DNA of 54,572 nucleotides, from positions 1-54,572 of the forward strand of contig ML002262.1 of assembly GCA_003614675.1 (NCBI GenBank), in the 5' to 3' direction. The notes under the pieces were generated by a model. That model saw nothing but the letters and a program-made list of their open reading frames with translations, was not told where the DNA came from and did not search any database. Shown here piece by piece: positions 1-54,572 of this stretch (position 1 is its first letter; each line of letters starts with the position of its first letter). This stretch comes from Dimargaris cristalligena. Taxonomy: Eukaryota. The translations under genes and the position numbers were made by a program.

Positions 1-1375
1 TTTAATATTTTAATTTTTAAAAATTCAAATAAAAATTTTTAAAAATTTTTACACCGCCATATTGAAAAATTGATTTAAAGATTTTGCTCTTATGTTAAGT
101 AATATTACTTATATTCTCTTAAACTGTTTATAATTCTTCTTATCTTGTTTATCTTTGATAAATGGTTTAATCCTCCCCACCACCATTATGTAATTATGCT
201 GTTTTACGGTTGCCCCGTGAATATAATGATAAAATATAATTATATCACCCCTCGTTGTTATTACATTTATCACAATCACTAGGAACCGTTCCACCATAAA
301 AAAAAATATAAAAAATAACCGAAAAAAACTTAATGATGTAACAATGAACAATCAGTAGGAAATCAATAGATAGTCCAATAAACATGGTTTAAAAATTGTG
401 AACCCCCCACATTTATGTGTGTTTATATAAAATATCTAAACCTGGCCTGTACCTTAACTCCACCGTGCCGTACCTATAAATGGGTTAAAATTTAAAACAA
501 TAAAATGAACATGGATATGAAATAAATTGTATTTGTTCCAATATGTTTCGCCCCATCATTAACAAAAAATATATGAAAAATGGAAAATCAAAATTACTAA
601 AGTTACTTGATTAAATATTTATAAAAATGTTAAAGATTATGAAGGAATTATTTCATATTAAATTTATATATATAAGCGTTTTTAATCACATATTTATAAA
701 ATTAATTTATTTCCCCCAATACTTCGTATTGCTTTGTTGATTGGCTTTCAATTACCAGTATTTTGTACTTTAAACACATAAATGTGTTACTAAGATAATT
801 ATATCAAAATATGTTTATTCATTATTAACCGCCCTACGGGGGGTTCCCACATTTATGTGTGTTTATCGATACTTCGTATCATATCCCCGCCAAATCTACG
901 ATTGGCAACATATTTATGTAACATTTATACCATTATATTCAAAATCATAGATTGGCTAACATTCTGGAAATTAATAAAGTAAAAAGGAAAGGGGCAAAAC
1001 CTGGGTTTTTCTATTTATGAACATTAGGTAAAATATAAATAAAAACATAAAGGAGGAATATCTAATAAATCAACTAAATAGGACAAATTGAAAAATAATA
1101 CAATCATATATAAACCAATATGTACAAAGTACTGGCTTGTTTCCTACAGATATTACCATTATTAATGAAAATGTACTAAGAAATATAAACACACATAAAT
1201 GTGGGAACCAACAGTTAAGCAAATCTATGATTTGGGTAATTGCGTATCTGATATGGGAAAATTCTTTTTGTATTATTACCATTTTCAATAATATAATGGG
1301 ACCAAAATTAATATTTTATAATTGGTGGGTATGAATATATAATTAACTAAAAAACAATATTGAAAATATTGCTCC

Positions 1376-1390
1376 CCAATCTATGATTGG
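1376..1390. repeat. Representative dispersed mini-hairpin element CCAATC-TAT-GATTGG (dozens of copies and variants genome-wide)
   Basis: Copies or variants near 6381, 11263, 13728, 14539, 19617, 32702, 33226, 34838, 34942, 36102, 39581, 42680, 48875. Confidence 0.9.
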
Positions 1391-1859
1391 TTCTAGATAT
1401 GAAATAAAAACACCAATATTATAAATATTGTGGGGTACGAAGTACTGCAGATTGATAATTTAAATATATAGGATCATAATATACTCTACCCCCATATTTT
1501 TAATATGGTTTATCAGTTTATTATTATCATAAATTCATTCAGTACATATACAAAGTATGGGACCAAAATTTACTTCTTTTAAAAGGATATTATAGCAAAT
1601 CTAAGATTGGGATTGCCAGATACATTATAACATCTACGATTGGGAATATGGAATAAAAGTATTTTAATTATATTTACTGCACAATCTACGATTGGTTAAA
1701 GATAAATAGAACAATTCCATCAGTATAGCTTTTGCATGGGTCCTATGGTGGGAGATTGCCTGCAGACCAGTTCATTCATACTAAAGTACTTAAAATAAAA
1801 AATAAAAATTTACTTACAATATTAGAATGAATATGCATTCAATCCACATTTTAACTTAC

Positions 1860-1942
1860 GCCTACTTGGAGAAATTGGTAAACTCAGACGCTTTAAAAGC
1901 GCCGCATCTTTGATGTTGAGGGTTCAACTCCCTCAGTAGGTA
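1860..1942 (+). tRNA. trnL: tRNA-Leu(UAA)
   Basis: Cloverleaf, anticodon arm gacgc-tttaaaa-gcgcc, long variable arm, GTTCA T-loop. Confidence 0.92.
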
Positions 1943-1946
1943 AATA

Positions 1947-2027
1947 GAGAAGTATGGAGTTTGGATCTCCAACCTTTCTGTAAAAAAGGCGGTAATACCA
2001 TAAAGGGTTCGAATCCCTTACTTCTCA
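1947..2027 (+). tRNA. trnY: tRNA-Tyr(GUA)
   Basis: Acceptor gagaagt/acttctc; ccttt-ctgtaaa-aaagg; long variable arm. Confidence 0.92.
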
Positions 2028-2075
2028 AGTAACACAATGAATTTATATACGCTTTGATCTGATAATATCTTAAAA

Positions 2076-2148
2076 GAGGGAATAGCTTAATAGGTAGAGC
2101 AAACCGCTCATAACGGTTAAAGTAGAAGTTCAATTCTTCTTTTCCTTA
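2076..2148 (+). tRNA. trnM: tRNA-CAU (Met, or lysidine-type Ile)
   Basis: aaccg-ctcataa-cggtt anticodon arm. Confidence 0.88.
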
Positions 2149-2149
2149 A

Positions 2150-2220
2150 GGTGAATAGGTGTTAAGGCTGCACATAAGGCTCATGATCTTAAAGAGATAG
2201 TTCAATTCTATCATTCACCC
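2150..2220 (+). tRNA. trnM: tRNA-Met(CAU), possibly initiator
   Basis: ggtgaat/attcacc; taagg-ctcatga-tctta. Confidence 0.85.
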
Positions 2221-2286
2221 AATTATATAACCACAATATTGAGTTACTTAGTAACTTTAATGCTATTTTTATACTAAGCTAAATCA

Positions 2287-2358
2287 GACTCCATGGTCAA
2301 ATGGTTAAGACACAAGATTTTCAATCTTGTAATGCCCGTTCAATTCGGGTTGGAGTTA
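2287..2358 (+). tRNA. trnE: tRNA-Glu(UUC)
   Basis: caaga-ttttcaa-tcttg. Confidence 0.93.
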
Positions 2359-2371
2359 TTAAAGTGCATTC

Positions 2372-2442
2372 AGGATTATAACTTAATGGTAAAGTAGCCA
2401 ATTGATAATTGGTTGATAGTGGTTCAATTCTACTTAATCCTA
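2372..2442 (+). tRNA. trnI: tRNA-Ile(GAU)
   Basis: gccaa-ttgataa-ttggt. Confidence 0.93.
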
Positions 2443-2526
2443 AATTCGGTTTTGACCGTTTACGAGACGGCAACTAGAGACTCGACAAATCTCGGCTTTC
2501 TTTAAGCTACAAAACCTGTTTCGTTT

Positions 2527-2597
2527 GGCTGGATAACATAATGGTAATGAGCAAGATTGCAAATCTTGATATAAGAGTTCAATTCTCTTTCTAGCCT
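2527..2597 (+). tRNA. trnC: tRNA-Cys(GCA)
   Basis: caaga-ttgcaaa-tcttg. Confidence 0.93.
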
Positions 2598-2625
2598 CAA
2601 CCAAGTCATAAACGACTTGCCCCAT

Positions 2626-2698
2626 GGGAATATAACTCAATTGGTAGAGTAACAAACTTTTAATTTGTATTATTTGGGTTCAAGTCCCAATATTCTCA
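2626..2698 (+). tRNA. trnK: tRNA-Lys(UUU)
   Basis: acaaa-cttttaa-tttgt. Confidence 0.93.
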
Positions 2699-2701
2699 AT
2701 G

Positions 2702-2774
2702 GCTTCGATAGCTCAACTTGGCAGAGCATAGGGCTGAAAACTCTAGGGAAGATGTTCAAGTCATCTTCGAAGCA
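2702..2774 (+). tRNA. trnF: tRNA-Phe(GAA)
   Basis: taggg-ctgaaaa-ctcta. Confidence 0.93.
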
Positions 2775-2836
2775 AACAATCTATGATTGGTTGGAAAGGT
2801 ATCGAAGCAAACAATCTATGATTGGTTGGAAAGGTA
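2767..2836. repeat. Perfect 35-bp tandem duplication (tcgaagcaaacaatctatgattggttggaaaggta x2) between converging trnF and trnM
   Basis: Units at 2767-2801 and 2802-2836; mirrored in the right TIR. Confidence 0.9.
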
Positions 2837-2893
2837 ATCGAAACCTTATTAACCGTTTATGATACGGCTGTTTTACCTTTAAACTATCCAACT
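2823..2893 (-). tRNA. trnM: Third tRNA-CAU (Met/Ile)
   Basis: gccgt-atcataa-acggt; A1:C72 mismatch. Confidence 0.85.
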
Positions 2894-2921
2894 TACTTGC
2901 CCCAATTATTAATGATCTTAC

Positions 2922-2994
2922 TTTGGATGGAGAGATTCGAACTCCCAAATGATGAAACCAAGATCCATTGCCTTACCTATTTGGCTACATCCAA
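2922..2994 (-). tRNA. trnQ: tRNA-Gln(UUG)
   Basis: ttggatg/catccaa; atgga-tcttggt-ttcat (C33). Confidence 0.88.
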
Positions 2995-3069
2995 ATTACG
3001 GATCAACATCTACAGTGCTGCTCTTTTATCATCTTATATTATTGATTTATTTTTATTTCTTATTTTAAT

Positions 3070-3140
3070 GCGAGTATAGGTTAATGGTAGACTCTCTTCC
3101 TTCCAAGTAGATTATGCTGGTTCAAATCCAGCTACTCGTA
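3070..3140 (+). tRNA. trnG: tRNA-Gly(UCC)
   Basis: gcgagta/tactcgt; loop cttccaa. Confidence 0.9.
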
Positions 3141-3161
3141 AACGGTTAAAACCGGATCTAT

Positions 3162-3233
3162 GGGGATATAGTATAATTGGTAGTACACACGTTTTGCATA
3201 CCTGTAGCAAGAGTTCAAATCTCTTTATCTCCA
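3162..3233 (+). tRNA. trnA: tRNA-Ala(UGC)
   Basis: ggggata/tatctcc with G3:U70; loop tttgcat. Confidence 0.92.
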
Positions 3234-3283
3234 AGGCGCCCGCCAAATCCTAGCGCAATTAATTACCCCACTTACGGTGTGGT

Positions 3284-3367
3284 GGATAGATGACTGAATT
3301 GGTTTAAGGTATCTTACTTGAAATAAGAAGGTTTATTACCATCTGGGTTCAAATCCCAGTCTATCCG
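3284..3367 (+). tRNA. trnS: tRNA-Ser(UGA)
   Basis: tctta-cttgaaa-taaga; long variable arm. Confidence 0.92.
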
Positions 3368-3391
3368 TTCGTTCGATGGCCACTGTTTTGT

Positions 3392-3465
3392 CGGATTGTA
3401 GCGTAATAGGATAACGAGTCCGGTCTGGGCCCGGAAGATTGCTAGTTCAACTCTAGCCAATCCGA
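3392..3465 (+). tRNA. trnP: tRNA-Pro(UGG)
   Basis: tccgg-tctgggc-ccgga (C33). Confidence 0.9.
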
Positions 3466-3507
3466 ATCTGAAAAATAAATCAAACCAAATTCCATTGAAC
3501 ATTTATA

Positions 3508-3617
3508 ATGTTGCTGAATACATTTTTAACCTATTTAATATTTACTCCCTTATTTATTATATTATTATTAAGTATTAATTTATTTTTACCTGTTAATAAA
3601 CCGGATTTTGAAAAATT
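3508..3617 (+). pseudogene. nad3: Truncated 5' copy of nad3 at the inner edge of the left TIR
   Basis: [36 protein letters not shown], identical to the start of nad3 exon 1 up to the TIR boundary. Confidence 0.85.
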
Positions 3618-3802: not shown

Positions 3803-3913
3803 TATAATATAAATAATAATTAACTTTATTATAAATATTTATACCATTAATCTTAGATTAATTAATTTTTTTCACTTTCCAAAAGATGAATTTACTCAGT
3901 TTATATATTTATT

Positions 3914-4177
3914 ATGATATTAGGATTAACATTATATTTTATAGGTATATATGGTATAATATTAAATAATAAAAATTATTTACAAATATTAATCTGTATA
4001 GAAATTTTATTATTGGCTGTAAATATAATTTTATTAACTTTTTCTTTAAATAATGATGATATAATTGGTCAATTATTTGCTCTTTATATAATTTGTATAG
4101 CTGGTGCAGAAACAGCAATAGGATTAGCTATATTAGTAACTTATTATAGATTAAGAAATTCTATTCTTATTAGTTAA
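3914..4177 (+). CDS. nad4L: NADH dehydrogenase subunit 4L
   Basis: 87 aa; IEILLLAVN...DDIIGQLFALYII.IAGAETAIGLAILV.YYRLR. Confidence 0.97.
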   Translation: MILGLTLYFIGIYGIILNNKNYLQILICIEILLLAVNIILLTFSLNNDDIIGQLFALYIICIAGAETAIGLAILVTYYRLRNSILIS

Positions 4178-5090: not shown

Positions 5091-6720
5091 CATTAATTAC
5101 ATTAATGTTCTGGATTGATTTATTAACGATCATATAAATTCTTAATTTTATCTTCTTATTATATACAGCTTTTTTGGCTGAAATGTTATTAATTGATTTA
5201 TTATACTTTTATTACAAGAATATATTTTTAATCAAGCTCTATTTATTATTTATATTATGAGCTATATTTTTCTTTTATTATTTTATCAGTTCTTCGTATT
5301 TTACTATTCTTTCTGGATTAAACCATAATTTATTTACCAAAATCAATAAATCTTCTTTGTATTAATATTTAACCTCATTATATTAATTTCATTAATGTTA
5401 ATATTGGGTCTCTGAGGAATCTATTCATAATTGTTATTATTTTGGTTTCCTACCCAATATTTTCAATATTGTTTATTAAATTTTTACAGTAAAAATCCCA
5501 ATTATTTCATAATTGTTAGCTAACAATTAAGGAGTTTCTAGTATATAGTGATATTTTTTTTTTTACAGCTATTATTTACTTAACTGTAGCCAAATCTTTA
5601 ATTTATTTACCATATAATTCATATTTATCATAAAATCTAATGCTATATAAATCCTTGTATCAATAACATTGTTATTCCTACATAGTCAATATCTTCTTTA
5701 AAAAATAATAAAACTAAAAATGAAAAACTTATGAATATGTGATTAAAAAGACTTATTTTATTACTTACCGAATCCCCAATATATGATTGTGGGTAGAATT
5801 ATTTATAATATCAATAATATATATATATTTGTATATATGATATTAAATTTTACAATCATATAAAAATTTTTAATTGTGGGTTCGAATCCTTGTTCATAAA
5901 ATTTCAGTTAAACCTTAAAAATATTGATATATTATAGAATTAAATATAAATGAAGAAGAATATAAAATTATATCATAAAATTATTTTTATTATAATGCAG
6001 AGTAAAAATTTAAGATAATTTGATCTATGGTGGTCATAATATAACTGAATATAAATAATAAAAGGAAATTGTTTTTAATATTGTTTAATTCGATTATGTA
6101 TAGAAATAATTGTTATTATCTGTAATATTTTTATATTCATCAGTTTACTAAGATATAACAGGATCACAAATCGTAGATTTGGCTTAGTTATAATTATTAC
6201 ACTTTTAGTTATTATAACTTTTTTTAAAATAATTTATAGATTTGGTATCTTATTACTCTAGATATTCCTACTAAAAACACATTTATGTATTGTACCATAT
6301 ATGTTCTTTACCAATTTTAATATAAATTTTACCCAAATTTGATTAATTAAATTATTTGCAATTTAAAATTAAAGTATTACCCAATCTATGATTGGTTAAT
6401 CAATTTAGGAATTAGAATTTGAACCAATAATAAACGAATATGTTCGAATTGTTATTGACCCAAATCTTAGATTTGTTGTGATAAAGGAATCATTATGTAA
6501 TTTAATTATAATAAACCTAATAATTCTAACAAATAAAAAAGATTATTGCACATCTTCGATGGGTGATTGTAGCTAAATACATTTATTAATATTTTTAAAG
6601 TTATGATTTAATTAAATAATATTTTTTATCCTGATACATAATATTGGTGTTTAATGATAAATTCATAAAAAAATCTATTGTTTTATTGTAAAATTTAATA
6701 ATGTGCATTATTGTTTAATT

Positions 6721-6975
6721 ATAGGAACTGTATATTGTTTATTATCAATTTTAAAGGCCTTTTTCTCGAATTTAAATGCAAATCCTAAAATTAATACTAA
6801 AATAATACTAGCAAAATTATTAAACCATATAGATCGTTAGCATAAGTACTAACTACATAAGGATATACTAATAATATTTCTAAGTCAAATAATAAAAATA
6901 ACAACGTAAATATAAAGAAAGATATATTAAATTGAGTTCTATTTTTGCTTAGGAATAAATGAAATCAGGGTCATT
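6721..6975 (-). pseudogene. nad3: Degenerate second nad3, Pezizomycotina-like
   Basis: FHLFLSKNRTQFNISFFIFTLLFLLFDLEILLVYPYVVSTYANDLYGL...LGFAFKFEKKAFKIDNKQ. Confidence 0.85.
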
Positions 6976-7009: not shown

Positions 7010-8010
7010 AGGTAATACTTTATCATTCTTGGTGGGTAAAAAATAAATAATAGAGTAATTAATGTTAAAATTTAAATTATAATTTTTATTGGATAATAAT
7101 ATATGGTTTATAAAAGAATATTTGTTTTACAATATTTAGATAATAAATTGCATTGTGTAGCAGTTATAGCTACAATAGATATGAATATATATCCATTGTT
7201 AATAATTAATGATAAAATCATTTGTTTTGCAAAGAATGCTATTAATAATAACTGGTATACTTACTAATGCACAGAATTTATACTAAAATAACCTTTAAGT
7301 TGATCCTATATAATGGGGTGAGTTATTTTTATCTTTGAATATATTTATTAATTTTAACTTTATCCAGAGACGAAGTATTTTGTATAACCTATAGCTATTA
7401 AAATAATAAAATATTGAGTATTGTATTAGATAGAACCAATTTATAAGCAAATAGTCTTTTTATTATAAATTGGTTCCCACAATTAGAGATAAGAAAGAAT
7501 ATGATTATAAATCATGGTTCAATTATAAATTATATTTGTATTACCCATTTATATTATAAATGTTTTTATCTCGATATAGATATTTTACTATAATAGCTAC
7601 AAATGTTATTGTTACTGTAGATATAGCATCATAAATATCAGAATTTCAAAAATAAAAAGGAACTACACCCATATCTTATATGTAAATCTTATAGAGCATC
7701 TAAGATGTTTTGATATCTTGTATTATCTTCATTAATATACCTAATAAAAATAATATAATCCTGCTGATATTGATGATTCATAATTTCCAGATATTAAAAA
7801 TATCTTATTAAAATTTTTAAATATTGTTACAATATATAATAAAAATATTAATAATATTCCTCTCAGTATCATAGATACTTTATAATTGAATAATTTATTT
7901 GTTTTATTATTATTATTATATGAATAGAAATTTATTAAATTTAATATTATAAATATTTGGATTAAGTTATCTATATGTAATAATCCATTAAAAATAGATA
8001 TAGCAATAAT
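7010..8010 (-). pseudogene. nad2: Degenerate nad2, Pezizomycotina-like
   Basis: Collinear fragments GLLHI, RNYESSISAGL, GVVPFYFWNSDIYDAISTVTITF, QFIIKRLFAY, DQLKGYFSIN, FFAKQMILS...NNGYIFISIVAI, with many frameshifts. Confidence 0.85.
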
Positions 8011-14820: not shown

Positions 14821-30903
<16,083 letters not shown>

Positions 30904-30936: not shown

Positions 30937-32364
30937 ATGGTAACAATATTTACATTAATTCCTTCATTAAGTATAATAAATTCTATAATAAATAAAAAAT
31001 GAATAATGGAAGTAGCTATATCAACAAGTATATTAATATTTTTATATACATTAACTTTATTATTACGATATGATTATAATATAATAGAATTTCAATTTTT
31101 TTATAAATATGGAATAGATTTTTTATTTGGTTTAGATGGTATAGCATTAATACTTATAATATTAGTAGCTTGATTAATACCAATATGTTTATTAACTAGT
31201 TATGTATCAATAAAGGATGGTTTAAATAAATTTATAATATTAATACATTCATTACAGTCAATATTATTATTAACATTTATATTATTAAATATATTTATAT
31301 TTTATATTGTATTTGAAGTATCATTAATACCTATGTTTTTATTAATTGGTATATTTGGTAATAGACATAGAAAAATTTATGCATCTTTTCAATTCTTTTT
31401 AACTACATTATTTGGTTCATTATTTATGTTATTATCAATTATTGTAATATTTGATTATTATGGTAGTTTAAATTATTTATATTTAACTTCTTATATTAGA
31501 TTATCAAGTATGTCATCTGATATTTTAGATATTTTATGATTAGGATTTTTTATTTCTTTTGCTATAAAAACACCTATGATGCCTATTCATTTGTGATTGA
31601 GTGATGCACATACAGAAGCTAATGTATCAGGTTCAATATTATTAGCAGGTATATTATTAAAATTAGCTGGATATGGATTTATACGTTATTCAATAGCTTT
31701 ATTACCAATATCTTCTATACATTTTGCTCCATTTATACAAATTTTAACTACTATATCAATTTTATTTTCTAGTTTTACTACATTAAGACAAATTGATTTA
31801 AAAAAAATTATTGCTTATTGTTCTATAGGTCATATGAATTTGAGTATATTCTCTTTATTTTCTAATAATTTTCAAGGTATTAATGGATCATTATTTACTA
31901 TGATTTCTCATGGTATAGTATCTCCTGCTTTATTTTTTTCAGTTGGTATATTATATGATAGATTTCATTCTCGTTTATTTAAATATTTTAAAGGTATTGC
32001 CATTTATATGCCTTTATTTGTTTTATTTTTTTTTATATTTAATTTAGCTAATATGGGGGTTCCTTTAACTTCTAGTTTTATTGGTGAATTTTTATCTTTT
32101 ATTGGTATATTTCAATATAATCCATTTTTTTTTATTTTAACTTGTTTATCTCTAATTTTATCTGCTTCTTATTCTATTTGATTATTTAATCGTATCTCTT
32201 TTGGATCTTTTTCTTATTATATTAAACCAATTTTTGATATTAATCGTAGAGAATTTACTATTTTATTTTCATTTTTATTTTTTATATTTTTATTTGGTAT
32301 ATTTCCAAATATAATTTTAAATCCTATTTCTTTAAGTACTTCTAATTTATTATATTTATTTTAA
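30937..32364 (+). CDS. nad4: NADH dehydrogenase subunit 4 (475 aa)
   Basis: Open with code 4; FGLDGI, AH.EA..SGSILLAGILLKL, RQIDLKKIIAY.SIGHM, SHGIVSPALF, LYDRFHSR. Confidence 0.96.
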
Positions 32365-33240: not shown

Positions 33241-33264
33241 TTATCGAAATGTATAAATAATTAA
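33241..33264 (+). promoter_or_regulatory. Conserved leader/promoter-like motif, copy 2
   Basis: ttatcgaaatgtataaataattaa, 22/24 match to copies at 4200 and 50308. Confidence 0.5.
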
Positions 33265-34135
33265 CATATTTTTTTTAACTATCAAAAATAACTTTAACAC
33301 ACTCCATATCTTAAGAATCAAATTAACAATAAAATTTGTTCAATATATTATAAAAAGAGATATTAAATTATTTGAGACTGTATATTGTGATAACGAAGAA
33401 AACAATAATCAATCACTATTAGATACTACTGTAAATTTTGAAACTACTCCAAGACAAATGTTAAATTTAGCTGGAAATCTATCAATAGGTGGTGTAAGTT
33501 CTTATATTGCATTCTATGATTTAAGATGAGGTATATCATCCGATGAACATTTTAATGTAAATCTATCTTCAAGAATAATTCTAATGTCTGCTGGAGCTAT
33601 TGGAGGAGGATTATTTGGACTAGGTATGTACCAAATAGCTTCTAGAAGATTAAGTGGTCCATATGCAAATATAACATTAAATTTACCTAGAGAAAGTATT
33701 ACACCCAATTCTTTAATAAATAAACCAAAATTAGACAGTTCTAACGAGGAAAATATATTATCAAGTATCAATAATAAAAATAATCCAGATTCCAATTCCG
33801 GAACAGACGTAATAAACCCATATTGTAAATATGGGTATAGTTTATTAAATCCTTTATCCGAAAATCCGGACATAGGTACATCAAAGATGTGTATATTAAT
33901 GTTATTACTTAGCATTCAATGCATGAATATAATAATTTTTAGATATCTTATATTGAAAAACCAAAATTTGATAAAAAAATATCTTAATGAAAAATTGAGA
34001 AATTATTATATCAAATTTATCAATATATTAGAAAAATCCTTTAATTTATATTTTATTTACTTTTTTATTTTAATTTATTTGATAATTCTTAGTGTAATAT
34101 ATTTTCTATACGACATATTAAAAAACATATATTAA
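33257..34135 (+). CDS. Intact orphan membrane protein with glycine-rich hydrophobic segment (frame open from 33257; first ATG at 33458)
   Basis: Stop-free for 292 codons in code 4; ETVYCD, LAGNLSIGGVS, MSAGAIGGGLFGLG, Asn-rich linker, two C-terminal hydrophobic helices. Confidence 0.7.
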
Positions 34136-40802: not shown

Positions 40803-40878
40803 AGAGAGTTGTATGATGGGAGACTATCACGTACGGTGGCAAGTAGGAACCGTAAGGAACTTAGACTTAGCCAACTAT
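40803..40878 (+). mobile_element. Orphan group II intron 3' end (degenerate domain V/VI)
   Basis: agagagttgtatgatgggagactatcacgtacggtggc...ccaactat. Confidence 0.75.
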
Positions 40879-47429: not shown

Positions 47430-48010
47430 TTTTATTTTTAGTTTCCTTAGTATATATATGATTTAAAATTTAACTTTTTTAATATATTTATATCCTAAAC
47501 TTAACCTAGCAATTAAACAATTTGGATCTAGATAAAATTGTTCTATCTCAAGCAGTTTAGCTTTTGGGCAATACTCTAAATTCTTCAAGGGAGTATTGCA
47601 AAATATCTTTGACTTTGTTTCTATTAAATTCAGGTTTATTATAATAACTTCCTAATCTTTTTACTTAATGTTTTATCATTCAGATTATTAATTAGATACC
47701 TAATTAATCCTTATTATCTCTTAATATCTCCTCTTTTAATTTATCTGCATTATCATAACTTTTAACTAGAGATACTAGTCTTTAATCTGACCCATGACTT
47801 TAAATAAAATTATTGCTATTATTGTTATTTATTGTGACGTATTGTAAATATTTATTGTAATGTCGACAGCTTAGTGTTTGTTTCATTCCAAACATAGGTC
47901 ATGGTAACTTAAAAATAACCTAACTCACATTTCATAGTCGCAACTAGATACGGCCAAAGACTCATCTTAGTAAGCTGTTTAATATCGTATCTTGCAGTCT
48001 CTTAACCCTA
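47430..48010 (-). pseudogene. Possible remnant of a further group II intron 5' part / RT N-terminus
   Basis: Locally higher GC; PKAKLLEIEQ resembles the RT0 region. Confidence 0.35.
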
Positions 48011-49748: not shown

Positions 49749-50270
49749 CTATTTATTTCTTACTTTTAATTTATTATTCCAAATCATAGATATTATATAT
49801 TTTATTTTACAAAATATCATTATTAATGTATATATTGAGAATATTAATACTATAGGTATGACAATAAATAATGAATAATTTTTATTTATTTCTATTGATG
49901 ATATTAACAATATAAAATGTATTCCTCCTAATACTCTAAATATTCTTATATACACATTATTGTTAAAAGCCTCTAATTTTGGTGGTAAAATTGGTACACT
50001 TAAACCCAATTTAAATCCATATATAAATCTTTTAATTTTTGATGTTTTTCAATAAGGAGGAATTACAAATTTAAATTCTGAATCTTTATTTTCAAAATTT
50101 TCAACTTTACTTTTTAACTCCCCTATTTTATCTAAATTTTTATTTTGTATTAATATACTGGGTAAAAATAAATAATTTATATCTATAGTATCTAAGTTTA
50201 TTACAAAAATTGTGAATAAAAAAAAAATTTCATTATCAGAATGAAGCTCCATTTTAGTTATATTTTTCAT
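49749..50270 (-). CDS. Orphan membrane protein (173 aa, possibly C-terminally truncated)
   Basis: Two track ORFs join through TGA=Trp; GFKLGLSVPILPPKLEAFNNNVYIRIFRVLGG followed by hydrophobic helices. Confidence 0.65.
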
Positions 50271-50309
50271 AACATTTAATATCTTTAATTATATATACAT
50301 TTCCATAAT
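50268..50309 (-). promoter_or_regulatory. Conserved leader/promoter-like motif, copy 3
   Basis: 39/42 identical to 4199-4240; ends at the ATG of ORF 49749-50270. Confidence 0.6.
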
Positions 50310-50584: not shown

Positions 50585-50606
50585 AAACAAATTAAAATAT
50601 AATAAA

Positions 50607-51065
50607 TTATTTATATTTTAAAGCTCCTTTAGTATATTCATAAAAAAAACCGATTGTTAATAAAATAATAAATATTATCATTATTACTCAACCATATATT
50701 GATAATTCATATAATAATAAAGCAAAAGGAAATAATAATATAATTTCTAGATCAAAGATTAAAAATAAAATTGCTACTAAAAAAAATTGTATTTTAAATT
50801 TTTCTCTTGCATCACCTAATGGATTAATACCGCCTTTATATATATGGACTTTGTTATTATGTTATTAATTTTATATTAAGTCTCTGAAAGTTATTTTGCA
50901 TATAAAAATTTATGCATATAATAAAATAATAGAGCACTTTAACTCATATGGGGATAATTTTTCAAAATCCGGTTTATTAACAGGTAAAAATAAATTAATA
51001 CTTAATAATAATATAATAAATAAGGGAGTAAATATTAAATAGGTTAAAAATGTATTCAGCAACAT
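50607..51065 (-). CDS. nad3: NADH dehydrogenase subunit 3; exons 51065-50942 and 50833-50607 (116 aa)
   Basis: Splicing restores [38 protein letters not shown]...[14 protein letters not shown]. Confidence 0.93.
50834..50941 (-). mobile_element. nad3 mini group I intron (108 nt)
   Basis: IGS gctc vs exon gagt; P3 attttat/ataaaat; P4 tgcata/tatgca; P7 gactt/aagtc; terminal G. Confidence 0.85.
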
Positions 51066-51107
51066 TATAAATGTTCAATGGAATTTGGTTTGATTTATTT
51101 TTCAGAT

Positions 51108-51181
51108 TCGGATTGGCTAGAGTTGAACTAGCAATCTTCCGGGCCCAGACCGGACTCGTTATCCTATTACGCTACAATCCG
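51108..51181 (-). tRNA. trnP: tRNA-Pro(UGG), TIR copy
   Basis: Mirror of 3392-3465. Confidence 0.9.
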
Positions 51182-51205
51182 ACAAAACAGTGGCCATCGA
51201 ACGAA

Positions 51206-51289
51206 CGGATAGACTGGGATTTGAACCCAGATGGTAATAAACCTTCTTATTTCAAGTAAGATACCTTAAACCAATTCAGTCATCTATCC
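51206..51289 (-). tRNA. trnS: tRNA-Ser(UGA), TIR copy
   Basis: Mirror of 3284-3367. Confidence 0.92.
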
Positions 51290-51339
51290 ACCACACCGTA
51301 AGTGGGGTAATTAATTGCGCTAGGATTTGGCGGGCGCCT

Positions 51340-51411
51340 TGGAGATAAAGAGATTTGAACTCTTGCTACAGGTATGCAAAACGTGTGTACTACCAATTAT
51401 ACTATATCCCC
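51340..51411 (-). tRNA. trnA: tRNA-Ala(UGC), TIR copy
   Basis: Mirror of 3162-3233. Confidence 0.92.
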
Positions 51412-51432
51412 ATAGATCCGGTTTTAACCGTT

Positions 51433-51503
51433 TACGAGTAGCTGGATTTGAACCAGCATAATCTACTTGGAAGGAAGAGAGTCTACCATTAACCTATACT
51501 CGC
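51433..51503 (-). tRNA. trnG: tRNA-Gly(UCC), TIR copy
   Basis: Mirror of 3070-3140. Confidence 0.9.
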
Positions 51504-51578
51504 ATTAAAATAAGAAATAAAAATAAATCAATAATATAAGATGATAAAAGAGCAGCACTGTAGATGTTGATCCGTAAT

Positions 51579-51651
51579 TTGGATGTAGCCAAATAGGTAA
51601 GGCAATGGATCTTGGTTTCATCATTTGGGAGTTCGAATCTCTCCATCCAAA
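51579..51651 (+). tRNA. trnQ: tRNA-Gln(UUG), TIR copy
   Basis: Mirror of 2922-2994. Confidence 0.88.
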
Positions 51652-51679
51652 GTAAGATCATTAATAATTGGGGCAAGTA

Positions 51680-51750
51680 AGTTGGATAGTTTAAAGGTAA
51701 AACAGCCGTATCATAAACGGTTAATAAGGTTTCGATTACCTTTCCAACCA
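51680..51750 (+). tRNA. trnM: tRNA-CAU (Met/Ile), TIR copy
   Basis: Mirror of 2823-2893. Confidence 0.85.
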
Positions 51751-51798
51751 ATCATAGATTGTTTGCTTCGATACCTTTCCAACCAATCATAGATTGTT

Positions 51799-51871
51799 TG
51801 CTTCGAAGATGACTTGAACATCTTCCCTAGAGTTTTCAGCCCTATGCTCTGCCAAGTTGAGCTATCGAAGC
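51799..51871 (-). tRNA. trnF: tRNA-Phe(GAA), TIR copy
   Basis: Mirror of 2702-2774. Confidence 0.93.
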
Positions 51872-51874
51872 CAT

Positions 51875-51947
51875 TGAGAATATTGGGACTTGAACCCAAA
51901 TAATACAAATTAAAAGTTTGTTACTCTACCAATTGAGTTATATTCCC
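51875..51947 (-). tRNA. trnK: tRNA-Lys(UUU), TIR copy
   Basis: Mirror of 2626-2698. Confidence 0.93.
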
Positions 51948-51975
51948 ATGGGGCAAGTCGTTTATGACTTGGTTG

Positions 51976-52046
51976 AGGCTAGAAAGAGAATTGAACTCTT
52001 ATATCAAGATTTGCAATCTTGCTCATTACCATTATGTTATCCAGCC
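51976..52046 (-). tRNA. trnC: tRNA-Cys(GCA), TIR copy
   Basis: Mirror of 2527-2597. Confidence 0.93.
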
Positions 52047-52130
52047 AAACGAAACAGGTTTTGTAGCTTAAAGAAAGCCGAGATTTGTCGAGTCTCTAGT
52101 TGCCGTCTCGTAAACGGTCAAAACCGAATT

Positions 52131-52201
52131 TAGGATTAAGTAGAATTGAACCACTATCAACCAATTATCAATTGGCTACTTTACCATTAAGTTATAATCC
52201 T
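52131..52201 (-). tRNA. trnI: tRNA-Ile(GAU), TIR copy
   Basis: Mirror of 2372-2442. Confidence 0.93.
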
Positions 52202-52214
52202 GAATGCACTTTAA

Positions 52215-52286
52215 TAACTCCAACCCGAATTGAACGGGCATTACAAGATTGAAAATCTTGTGTCTTAACCATTTGACCATGGAGTC
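52215..52286 (-). tRNA. trnE: tRNA-Glu(UUC), TIR copy
   Basis: Mirror of 2287-2358. Confidence 0.93.
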
Positions 52287-52352
52287 TGATTTAGCTTAGT
52301 ATAAAAATAGCATTAAAGTTACTAAGTAACTCAATATTGTGGTTATATAATT

Positions 52353-52423
52353 GGGTGAATGATAGAATTGAACTATCTCTTTAAGATCATGAGCCTTATG
52401 TGCAGCCTTAACACCTATTCACC
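52353..52423 (-). tRNA. trnM: tRNA-Met(CAU), TIR copy
   Basis: Mirror of 2150-2220. Confidence 0.85.
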
Positions 52424-52424
52424 T

Positions 52425-52497
52425 TAAGGAAAAGAAGAATTGAACTTCTACTTTAACCGTTATGAGCGGTTTGCTCTACCTATTAAGCTATTCCCTC
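52425..52497 (-). tRNA. trnM: tRNA-CAU (Met/Ile), TIR copy
   Basis: Mirror of 2076-2148. Confidence 0.88.
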
Positions 52498-52545
52498 TTT
52501 TAAGATATTATCAGATCAAAGCGTATATAAATTCATTGTGTTACT

Positions 52546-52626
52546 TGAGAAGTAAGGGATTCGAACCCTTTATGGTATTACCGCCTTTTTTACAGAAAGG
52601 TTGGAGATCCAAACTCCATACTTCTC
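52546..52626 (-). tRNA. trnY: tRNA-Tyr(GUA), TIR copy
   Basis: Mirror of 1947-2027. Confidence 0.92.
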
Positions 52627-52630
52627 TATT

Positions 52631-52713
52631 TACCTACTGAGGGAGTTGAACCCTCAACATCAAAGATGCGGCGCTTTTAAAGCGTCTGAGTTTACCAATT
52701 TCTCCAAGTAGGC
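52631..52713 (-). tRNA. trnL: tRNA-Leu(UAA), TIR copy
   Basis: Mirror of 1860-1942. Confidence 0.92.
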
Positions 52714-54572
52714 GTAAGTTAAAATGTGGATTGAATGCATATTCATTCTAATATTGTAAGTAAATTTTTATTTTTTATTTTAAGTACTTTAGTATGAATG
52801 AACTGGTCTGCAGGCAATCTCCCACCATAGGACCCATGCAAAAGCTATACTGATGGAATTGTTCTATTTATCTTTAACCAATCGTAGATTGTGCAGTAAA
52901 TATAATTAAAATACTTTTATTCCATATTCCCAATCGTAGATGTTATAATGTATCTGGCAATCCCAATCTTAGATTTGCTATAATATCCTTTTAAAAGAAG
53001 TAAATTTTGGTCCCATACTTTGTATATGTACTGAATGAATTTATGATAATAATAAACTGATAAACCATATTAAAAATATGGGGGTAGAGTATATTATGAT
53101 CCTATATATTTAAATTATCAATCTGCAGTACTTCGTACCCCACAATATTTATAATATTGGTGTTTTTATTTCATATCTAGAACCAATCATAGATTGGGGA
53201 GCAATATTTTCAATATTGTTTTTTAGTTAATTATATATTCATACCCACCAATTATAAAATATTAATTTTGGTCCCATTATATTATTGAAAATGGTAATAA
53301 TACAAAAAGAATTTTCCCATATCAGATACGCAATTACCCAAATCATAGATTTGCTTAACTGTTGGTTCCCACATTTATGTGTGTTTATATTTCTTAGTAC
53401 ATTTTCATTAATAATGGTAATATCTGTAGGAAACAAGCCAGTACTTTGTACATATTGGTTTATATATGATTGTATTATTTTTCAATTTGTCCTATTTAGT
53501 TGATTTATTAGATATTCCTCCTTTATGTTTTTATTTATATTTTACCTAATGTTCATAAATAGAAAAACCCAGGTTTTGCCCCTTTCCTTTTTACTTTATT
53601 AATTTCCAGAATGTTAGCCAATCTATGATTTTGAATATAATGGTATAAATGTTACATAAATATGTTGCCAATCGTAGATTTGGCGGGGATATGATACGAA
53701 GTATCGATAAACACACATAAATGTGGGAACCCCCCGTAGGGCGGTTAATAATGAATAAACATATTTTGATATAATTATCTTAGTAACACATTTATGTGTT
53801 TAAAGTACAAACTACTGGTAATTGAAAGCCAATCAACAAAGCAATACGAAGTATTGGGGGAAATAAATTAATTTTATAAATATGTGATTAAAAACGCTTA
53901 TATATATAAATTTAATATGAAATAATTCCTTCATAATCTTTAACATTTTTATAAATATTTAATCAAGTAACTTTAGTAATTTTGATTTTCCATTTTTCAT
54001 ATATTTTTTGTTAATGATGGGGCGAAACATATTGGAACAAATACAATTTATTTCATATCCATGTTCATTTTATTGTTTTAAATTTTAACCCATTTATAGG
54101 TACGGCACGGTGGAGTTAAGGTACAGGCCAGGTTTAGATATTTTATATAAACACACATAAATGTGGGGGGTTCACAATTTTTAAACCATGTTTATTGGAC
54201 TATCTATTGATTTCCTACTGATTGTTCATTGTTACATCATTAAGTTTTTTTCGGTTATTTTTTATATTTTTTTTTATGGTGGAACGGTTCCTAGTGATTG
54301 TGATAAATGTAATAACAACGAGGGGTGATATAATTATATTTTATCATTATATTCACGGGGCAACCGTAAAACAGCATAATTACATAATGGTGGTGGGGAG
54401 GATTAAACCATTTATCAAAGATAAACAAGATAAGAAGAATTATAAACAGTTTAAGAGAATATAAGTAATATTACTTAACATAAGAGCAAAATCTTTAAAT
54501 CAATTTTTCAATATGGCGGTGTAAAAATTTTTAAAAATTTTTATTTGAATTTTTAAAAATTAAAATATTGGG

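Follow-up and report, generated by a model that had tools for sequence, protein, structure and literature searches.

How much of a group I intron can be lost from a protein-coding gene before the intron ceases to be one? This question is raised by the nad3 gene on contig ML002262.1 of Dimargaris cristalligena (GenBank assembly GCA_003614675.1), which was analysed over positions 1 to 54,572 of the forward strand (54,572 nucleotides (nt); hereafter the window, to which all coordinates refer). The gene is encoded on the minus strand and is interrupted by an insert of exactly 108 nt. A core of some 200 nt of RNA or more is commonly regarded as necessary for a group I intron. On the basis of its motifs, its predicted helices and its parallels with the cox1 introns of the same molecule, it is considered fairly probable that the insert represents a miniaturised group I intron of the compact cox1 type, lacking an open reading frame (ORF), which is spliced via the guanosine-initiated pathway, probably with the assistance of proteins. 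An initial annotation, made from the letters of the sequence, had proposed a 108-nt group I intron running from 50941 to 50834 on the minus strand, and both its coordinates and its length are right, as are the other points in its description of the insertion that could be checked.

Structure of the interrupted nad3 gene

Exon 1 of nad3 (50942..51065, minus strand) comprises 41 codons, reading MLLNTF...EKLSPYE, followed by the T of a Cys codon, as delimited by translation and by an alignment with homologues (alignment A1). Exon 2 (50607..50833, minus strand), delimited by its Pfam match and its homologues, supplies the GC of the same codon and continues to ...KGALKYK and a stop codon. The bases abutting the insert are CCA TAT GAG T at the 3' end of exon 1 and GC GGT ATT AAT CCA at the 5' end of exon 2. 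Exon 2 is open up to its stop at 50607, matches the Pfam family Oxidored_q4 over positions 27-98 of the 99-position profile (E 1.4e-22) and encodes a product that is 59-69% identical to its best homologues; both exons are open and conserved and neither contains a frameshift. In alignment A1 the exon 1 product stops at YE and the exon 2 product begins at G, with a single column between them, which is occupied by Cys in all six homologues, each of them reading YECG. Joining T to GC therefore restores the Cys codon of this motif, the codon which the initial annotation described as split T/GC. No other register recreates it, since the last bases of exon 1 and of the insert differ (T and G, respectively), as do the first bases of exon 2 (G) and of the insert (T). 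In one relative (P0243), whose aligned N-terminal part is 75% identical to the exon 1 product, the protein reads through this site unbroken (EKLSPYECGMNPLGDAR), and with respect to the ancestral gene the 108 nt are thus an insertion.

The insert (50834..50941, minus strand) is 17.6% G+C, begins with UAAAG and ends with AAAG. It is in frame and contains four in-frame stop codons, in keeping with the stops reported earlier, and the upstream nad3 ORF runs on for 11 codons into the insert and then ends. An origin as a repeated mobile element was rejected, as blastn against the window recovers short A+T-rich matches only and no second copy of the insert. Its origin as a decayed duplicate of exon 1 was likewise rejected: the best local alignment between the two scores 15.5 vs 14.3 +/- 2.3 in shuffles (p = 0.30), and when compared against genomic windows their similarity is again at chance level (p = 0.42). 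An ORF which includes ten insert codons before exon 2 attains 89.7 bits against Pfam, vs 80.1 bits for exon 2 alone. The residual coding similarity in the insert (YKGG vs YECG) was treated as chance, with 10 of 22 bases identical, which is near the expectation from composition; the stretch that shows this likeness also contains the AGTCC motif considered below.

Group I signatures shared with the cox1 introns

A P7 helix of group I type can be recognised in the insert from its motifs, pairing and predicted fold. Its 5' strand is the motif TCAGAGACT (intron nt 55-63; 50879..50887, minus strand; intron nt k corresponds to window position 50942-k), which includes the bulged A59, and its 3' strand is AAGUCC (intron nt 91-96; 50846..50851, minus strand). 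The former corresponds to the 'R' element that is classical for group I introns of mitochondria, and AAGUCC, of which AGTCC is a part, to the 'S' element. The predicted pairs are G58-C96, G60-C95, A61-U94, C62-G93, U63-A92 and U64-A91. The 3'-terminal G (omega G) of the insert lies at 50834 (minus strand), 12 nt past AGUCC, and two of the features that the initial annotation had listed as retained, the P7 helix (as predicted) and the terminal G, are thus in place. An unpaired base beside a G-C pair is characteristic of the guanosine site in group I P7 regions, as described in PMC3160393, and the predicted P7 of the insert (GAGACUU/AAGUCC, with the bulged A next to a G-C pair) has this arrangement.

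The 5' motif is far from randomly distributed across the molecule. Five exact copies of TCAGAGACT occur in 54.6 kb, four of them in cox1 introns (plus strand) and one in the nad3 insert (minus strand), and all five are intronic and in the sense orientation of their host gene. When one mismatch is allowed, 13 matches are found vs an expectation of 3.91 +/- 1.99, a count which was reached in none of 100 shuffles. The composite pattern CAGAGACT-N12-42-AGTCC is matched three times, in cox1 introns 3 and 7 (i3 and i7) and in the nad3 insert, and none of 100 shuffles yielded any match. One-mismatch copies of TCAGAGACT are also present in unannotated DNA, at 5407-5415 and 47996-48004 (both minus strand), and may be left over from additional group I introns.

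Among the cox1 introns, i3 carries the textbook version of the 5' motif, GGAAGATATAGTCC, with a clear P8 hairpin between both motifs, while i7 (23892-24889, plus strand) serves as the comparator for the insert. It is a group I intron with an intact LAGLIDADG ORF of 299 codons (23945-24844), outside of which lie just 53 nt on the 5' side and 45 nt on the 3' side. In i7 the R element is followed by 18 nt, AGTCC, 11 nt and the terminal G abutting the exon; in the nad3 insert the corresponding order is R, 28 nt, AGTCC, 12 nt and G. The 54 nt at either end of the insert align to the corresponding end of i7 better than shuffled sequences do (p = 0.0135 for the 5' end and 0.001 for the 3' end). Judged by layout and alignment, the insert looks like an i7-type intron minus its ORF.

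Further parallels are evident in the variation of P7 and in the 3' ends. The only P7 pair that varies is the distal one, which is A-U in cox1 i3, i7, i10 and i12 (ACTA/TAGTCC), G-C in i11 (ACTG/CAGTCC), G.U in i2 (ACTG/TAGTCC) and U-A in the nad3 insert (ACTT/AAGTCC); it thus changes on both sides and is paired in all seven of these paralogous introns of the molecule. Of ten cox1 intron 3' ends compared, seven fall on G (i2, i3, i4, i5, i6, i7 and i11), the approximate ends of i8, i10 and i12 not being G. In the four G-ended introns with AGTCC within their terminal 90 nt (i2, i3, i7 and i11), the terminal G is located 11-34 nt past this motif.

P1, the reduced core and the proposed splicing pathway

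The 5' splice site is matched by an internal guide sequence, GCUC (intron nt 7-10; 50932..50935, minus strand), which pairs with GAGU at the end of exon 1 (50945..50942). The resulting P1 has its U.G pair where the 5' splice site lies and closes a 6-nt loop, UAAAGU. In cox1 i7 the exon sequence GUUGAU pairs with nt 7-12 (GUCAAU) around the loop AUUAGU, and the two introns share a P1 geometry in which a 6-nt loop ends in AGU and the guide starts at +7. When the insert is folded together with 12 nt of the upstream and 10 nt of the downstream exon, the unconstrained minimum free energy structure (-13.3 kcal/mol) contains P1, a single hairpin and P7 together, and the gagt/gctc pairing put forward in the initial annotation is hence borne out by the predicted fold. 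Neither P1 nor P7 appears when cox1 i7 is folded without its ORF.

The hairpin in this structure (intron nt 18-51; 50891..50924, minus strand) consists of UUAUU/AAUAA, an internal loop and UGCAUA/UAUGCA. It is the sole candidate for the P4-P6 domain, and its stems may correspond to P4 and P5. The insert has no room for P2, P6 or P9. Possible P3 (approximately nt 11-15/64-68) and P8 (approximately nt 73-76/83-86) helices, placed by eye, would consist of 4-5 A-U pairs. The G and C residues of the insert are concentrated in the modelled helices, with 14 of 19 falling within the 40 model positions (Fisher p = 4e-4), a test which is partly circular as folding favours G-C pairs.

Because the P7 signature, the 3' layout, the terminal G, the exon-terminal U and the P1 geometry match those of the cox1 introns, the comparison supports the derivation of the insert from a group I intron, as opposed to random AT-rich filler. 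This portion of the initial group I reading stands, but the splicing that it asserted can be advanced here only as probable.

Were the insert to splice, the steps would follow the established chemistry of group I introns. Free guanosine would bind the G-C pair next to the bulged A of P7 (GAGACUU/AAGUCC) and attack after U50942, following which the terminal G of the intron (50834) would take the same guanosine site. The freed 3'-OH of exon 1 would then attack the 3' splice site, joining T to GC, returning the Cys codon and yielding a NAD3 protein of 116 residues. With P4-P6 reduced to one hairpin and P3/P8 to 4-5 A-U pairs, unaided folding of the RNA is unlikely, and dependence on proteins is therefore most likely. 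The helpers may be the LAGLIDADG maturases encoded in the cox1 introns or nuclear splicing factors, and a working insert could even borrow helices in trans from the RNA of the full-size cox1 introns.

Evidence weighing against splicing

Several observations weigh against a working intron. P1 comprises just four pairs and P10 at most two, and the P3 and P8 pairings are indistinguishable from chance in a sequence of 82% A+T. Folded alone, the insert reaches -11.6 kcal/mol (z = -1.11), which is equalled or bettered by 28 of 200 shuffles, and its guide sequence then pairs with the 5' strand of P7 and not with the exon. The other introns on the molecule are all about 500 nt or longer and there is no second mini-intron among them. 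The Rfam group I model RF00028 finds no match in 50600-51100 (E <= 10) or in the window (at gathering thresholds or at E <= 1). This silence counts for little, since RF00028 also misses every cox1 group I intron of this A+T-rich molecule at E <= 1; group II domain V is found easily. The failure of RF00028 on all the group I introns of the molecule also makes it plausible that automatic annotation would miss nad3, as had been anticipated.

The remaining points concern the molecule as a whole. The initial annotation had reasoned that this is the only intact nad3 and that splicing is consequently needed. The first part holds for the window, in which the nad3 of 50607..51065 is the only intact copy. 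A truncated 5' copy (3508..3617, plus strand) is present in the left arm of a terminal inverted repeat, where it comprises the first 110 nt of the gene before running into ...EKFKRKNKYKML and a stop codon; it departs from nad3 at the repeat boundary, 14 nt short of where the insert would start. A degenerate nad3-like fragment (6737..6964, minus strand; Pfam E 6.1e-10, tblastn) covers only the second and third transmembrane segments (TM2-TM3) and contains stops and a deletion. The second part follows less surely: most mitochondrial genes are absent from the window, so that a nad3 on another segment or in the nucleus is possible, and this weakens the argument that splicing must occur.

The whole window is an organelle molecule of 23.5% G+C, in which UGA encodes Trp, as indicated by a transfer RNA (tRNA) with the anticodon UCA and by in-frame TGA codons in nad3 and nad4. 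Its recognisable protein genes are nad4L (3866-4177), cox1 (14821 to approximately 30900, plus strand, with about 12 introns), nad4 (30937-32364) and nad3. No core motifs of ribosomal RNA (rRNA) were found in the window, nor does Rfam give an rRNA match at E <= 1, and conserved motifs of cob, cox2, cox3, atp6, atp9, nad1 and nad5 are likewise missing from it, the control motifs of cox1 and nad4 being found. The tRNA list of the window lacks tRNAs for Arg, Asp, Thr and Val. Lacking rRNA and most mitochondrial gene motifs, the window implies that more DNA must exist, and the molecule resembles a single segment of a multipartite, linear mitochondrial genome. Both of its ends are formed by a perfect inverted repeat of 3,614 nt (arms 4-3617 and 50956-54569), with approximately 15 tRNA genes in each arm. 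The inner boundary of the repeat falls within nad3 exon 1, of which bases 51065..50956 lie in the right arm, giving rise to the truncated 5' copy in the left arm. A chytrid whose mitochondrial genome comprises three linear segments with terminal inverted repeats is described as having the same architecture (PMC6131824).

Between approximately 5 and 14.7 kb extends a 10-kb stretch without intact genes, which holds the nad3-like remnant and a nad2-like motif (VVPFYFWNSDIYD, at about 7544-7675, minus strand) and may be a decaying duplicated or foreign segment. The nad3 gene under study is thus carried on a molecule with decaying gene fragments and without most mitochondrial genes, and this too speaks against a working intron.

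Alternative explanations

The alternative that survives best holds that a full-size group I intron has lost its ORF and most of its core by deletion and no longer splices, the interrupted nad3 being a young pseudogene with a working gene on a different mitochondrial segment or in the nucleus. This would agree with the want of rRNA motifs, of Rfam rRNA matches and of the cob, cox2, cox3, atp6, atp9, nad1 and nad5 motifs, from which it follows that more DNA must exist, with the tolerance of decayed fragments on the molecule (nad3-like at 6737-6964, nad2-like near 7660) and with the size of the insert, which is far smaller than every other intron present. There is also a precedent, in that predicted nad3 introns have been false before. 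According to PMC7315562, nad3-i1 of Tremella fuciformis and other predicted mitochondrial introns were shown by complementary DNA (cDNA) not to be introns. Like the insert, nad3-i1 interrupts the nad3 frame in the genome and was annotated by prediction alone, and this case calls for caution on the splicing of the insert. The false introns described there are, however, kb-sized and contain duplicated N-termini of the host gene, whereas the similarity of the insert to exon 1 is only at chance level. Furthermore, both nad3 exons remain open and conserved without a frameshift, exon 2 with its Pfam E of 1.4e-22, whereas the nad3-like fragment has decayed. All the positions needed for group I chemistry (the exon-terminal U, the guide G, the P7 with its bulged A and G-C pairs, and the terminal G) are intact, the model helices hold most of the few G and C residues that the insert has, and the distal P7 pair differs from those of the cox1 introns on both sides and still pairs. 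A dead remnant is accordingly judged unlikely, if a good deal less so than the explanations that follow.

A second alternative is that the insert is retained and that NAD3 is made as two polypeptides, with TM1 derived from the 51-codon ORF at 51065..50913 and TM2-TM3 translated from another start close to the end of the insert, such as the in-frame ATA at 50843..50841. The break does fall in the loop that links TM1 to TM2, the upstream ORF stops 11 codons into the insert, and two 74-residue database proteins (P0003 and P0004) begin with MNPLGDAR, directly past the break point. The latter cannot serve as proof that relatives are split at this position, as P0243 has a Met there within an unbroken YECGMNPLG, and the 74-residue entries may instead be truncated gene calls. 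A split gene would, moreover, leave the conserved Cys of YECG out of both pieces and the group I signature without explanation, and is regarded as highly improbable.

No greater weight is given, even jointly, to a degenerate group II or group III-like intron, translational bypass, a mobile hairpin or an artefact arising at the repeat boundary, for while the insert is in frame, recalls euglenid group III introns in its 108 nt and A+T richness and lies 14 nt from the inverted-repeat boundary, it has neither a GUGYG start nor a domain V match, no matched pair of take-off and landing codons flanks it, the Cys codon exists only after RNA joining, no second copy is found in the window, the expected LSPYE is encoded in the 14 nt that separate the boundary from the insert, and its similarity to exon 1 is at chance (p about 0.3-0.4).

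Comparison with known introns

The preferred reading, a miniaturised group I intron, can be set against several known systems. The canonical mitochondrial group I introns of cox1 on the same molecule (e.g., 23892-24889 and 19030-19857) share with the insert a 5' exon ending in a U paired with a guide G, a P7 composed of TCAGAGACT and AGTCC with a bulged A by G-C pairs, and a short, G-ended tail past AGTCC. They differ in their length of about 500 nt or more, vs 108 nt, so that the insert is around one fifth of the usual size, and the insert has no ORF, no room for P2, P6 and P9, a single hairpin in place of P4-P6 and just 4-5 A-U pairs for each of P3 and P8.

The group III introns of euglenid plastids are approximately 100 nt long, A+T rich and located in organelle protein-coding genes. 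They derive from group II introns and possess a domain VI and ends of group II type. The insert has neither such ends (UAAAG...AAAG, with no GUGYG start and no 3' AY) nor a domain VI, and bears the P7 motifs of group I introns. In the window, Rfam matches to domain V of group II introns are restricted to 17473-17549 and 27980-28071, both in cox1, and, weakly, 40804-40875, and none lies in the insert.

A further comparison is with putative group I introns of 56-81 nt in fungal nuclear small subunit ribosomal DNA (rDNA), which are reduced to P1, P7 and P10 according to PMC3160393. A 67-nt rDNA intron is reported there to undergo splicing in vitro and is named as the smallest intron for which group I activity has been demonstrated. 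Like the insert, these introns possess little beyond P1 and P7, and outside help is presumed for both. The rDNA introns, however, belong to subgroup IC1, interrupt nuclear rRNA genes, end in U and not in G, pair with the 3' exon and have a P7 thought to derive from P9.2 (PMC3160393). The nad3 insert is larger, is located in a mitochondrial protein-coding gene and ends in G, and its P7 has the standard sequence found in the full-size introns of the molecule.

The nad3 insert is consequently not the smallest group I intron known; of the earlier suggestion that it may be among the smallest, its small size stands, but introns of 56-81 nt are on record from fungal nuclear rDNA (PMC3160393). A literature search that covered few subscription journals found no report of a mitochondrial protein-coding gene holding a group I intron of some 100 nt. 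That the insert is a working group I intron of 108 nt and the smallest in any organelle or protein-coding gene is a tentative proposal, to which slightly less than even credence is given.

Other features of the molecule

The cox1 introns include two group II introns with reverse-transcriptase ORFs and several introns with LAGLIDADG ORFs. A cox1 micro-exon of approximately 18 nt (TYYVVA) is apparently located at 29245-29262 (plus strand) between two introns, the upstream one of which has a 3' end that is not G, its junction having been set by eye. The third group II domain V-like match, at 40804-40875 (plus strand), scores 35.9 bits (gathering score 40) and has no recognised host gene. The best named relatives of nad4, approximately 50% identical, are from the Mucorales, Conidiobolus, Endogone and Blastocladiella, which makes an early-diverging fungus without close database relatives the probable source. 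Two ORFs, at 33257-34135 (plus strand, 292 codons) and 49752-50288 (minus strand, 179 codons), have no Pfam match.

Implications for group I intron reduction

Should the nad3 insert prove to be a dead remnant, it would represent a snapshot of intron decay right after the loss of the ORF and the core. Inserts of such size escape intron finders, and genes like nad3 are then called truncated or missing. A working intron would have kept the terminal G, the U.G pair of the splice site and the canonical P7 that binds guanosine while shedding P2, P6, P9 and nearly all of P3 and P8, and would thereby define in nature the minimal RNA for protein-assisted group I splicing. It would indicate that proteins or trans-acting RNA contribute strongly, and would offer a small substrate with which to look for these helpers. 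As it would do so with a standard active-site helix and in an essential respiratory gene, it would provide a lower limit, taken from nature, for the RNA component of the reaction.
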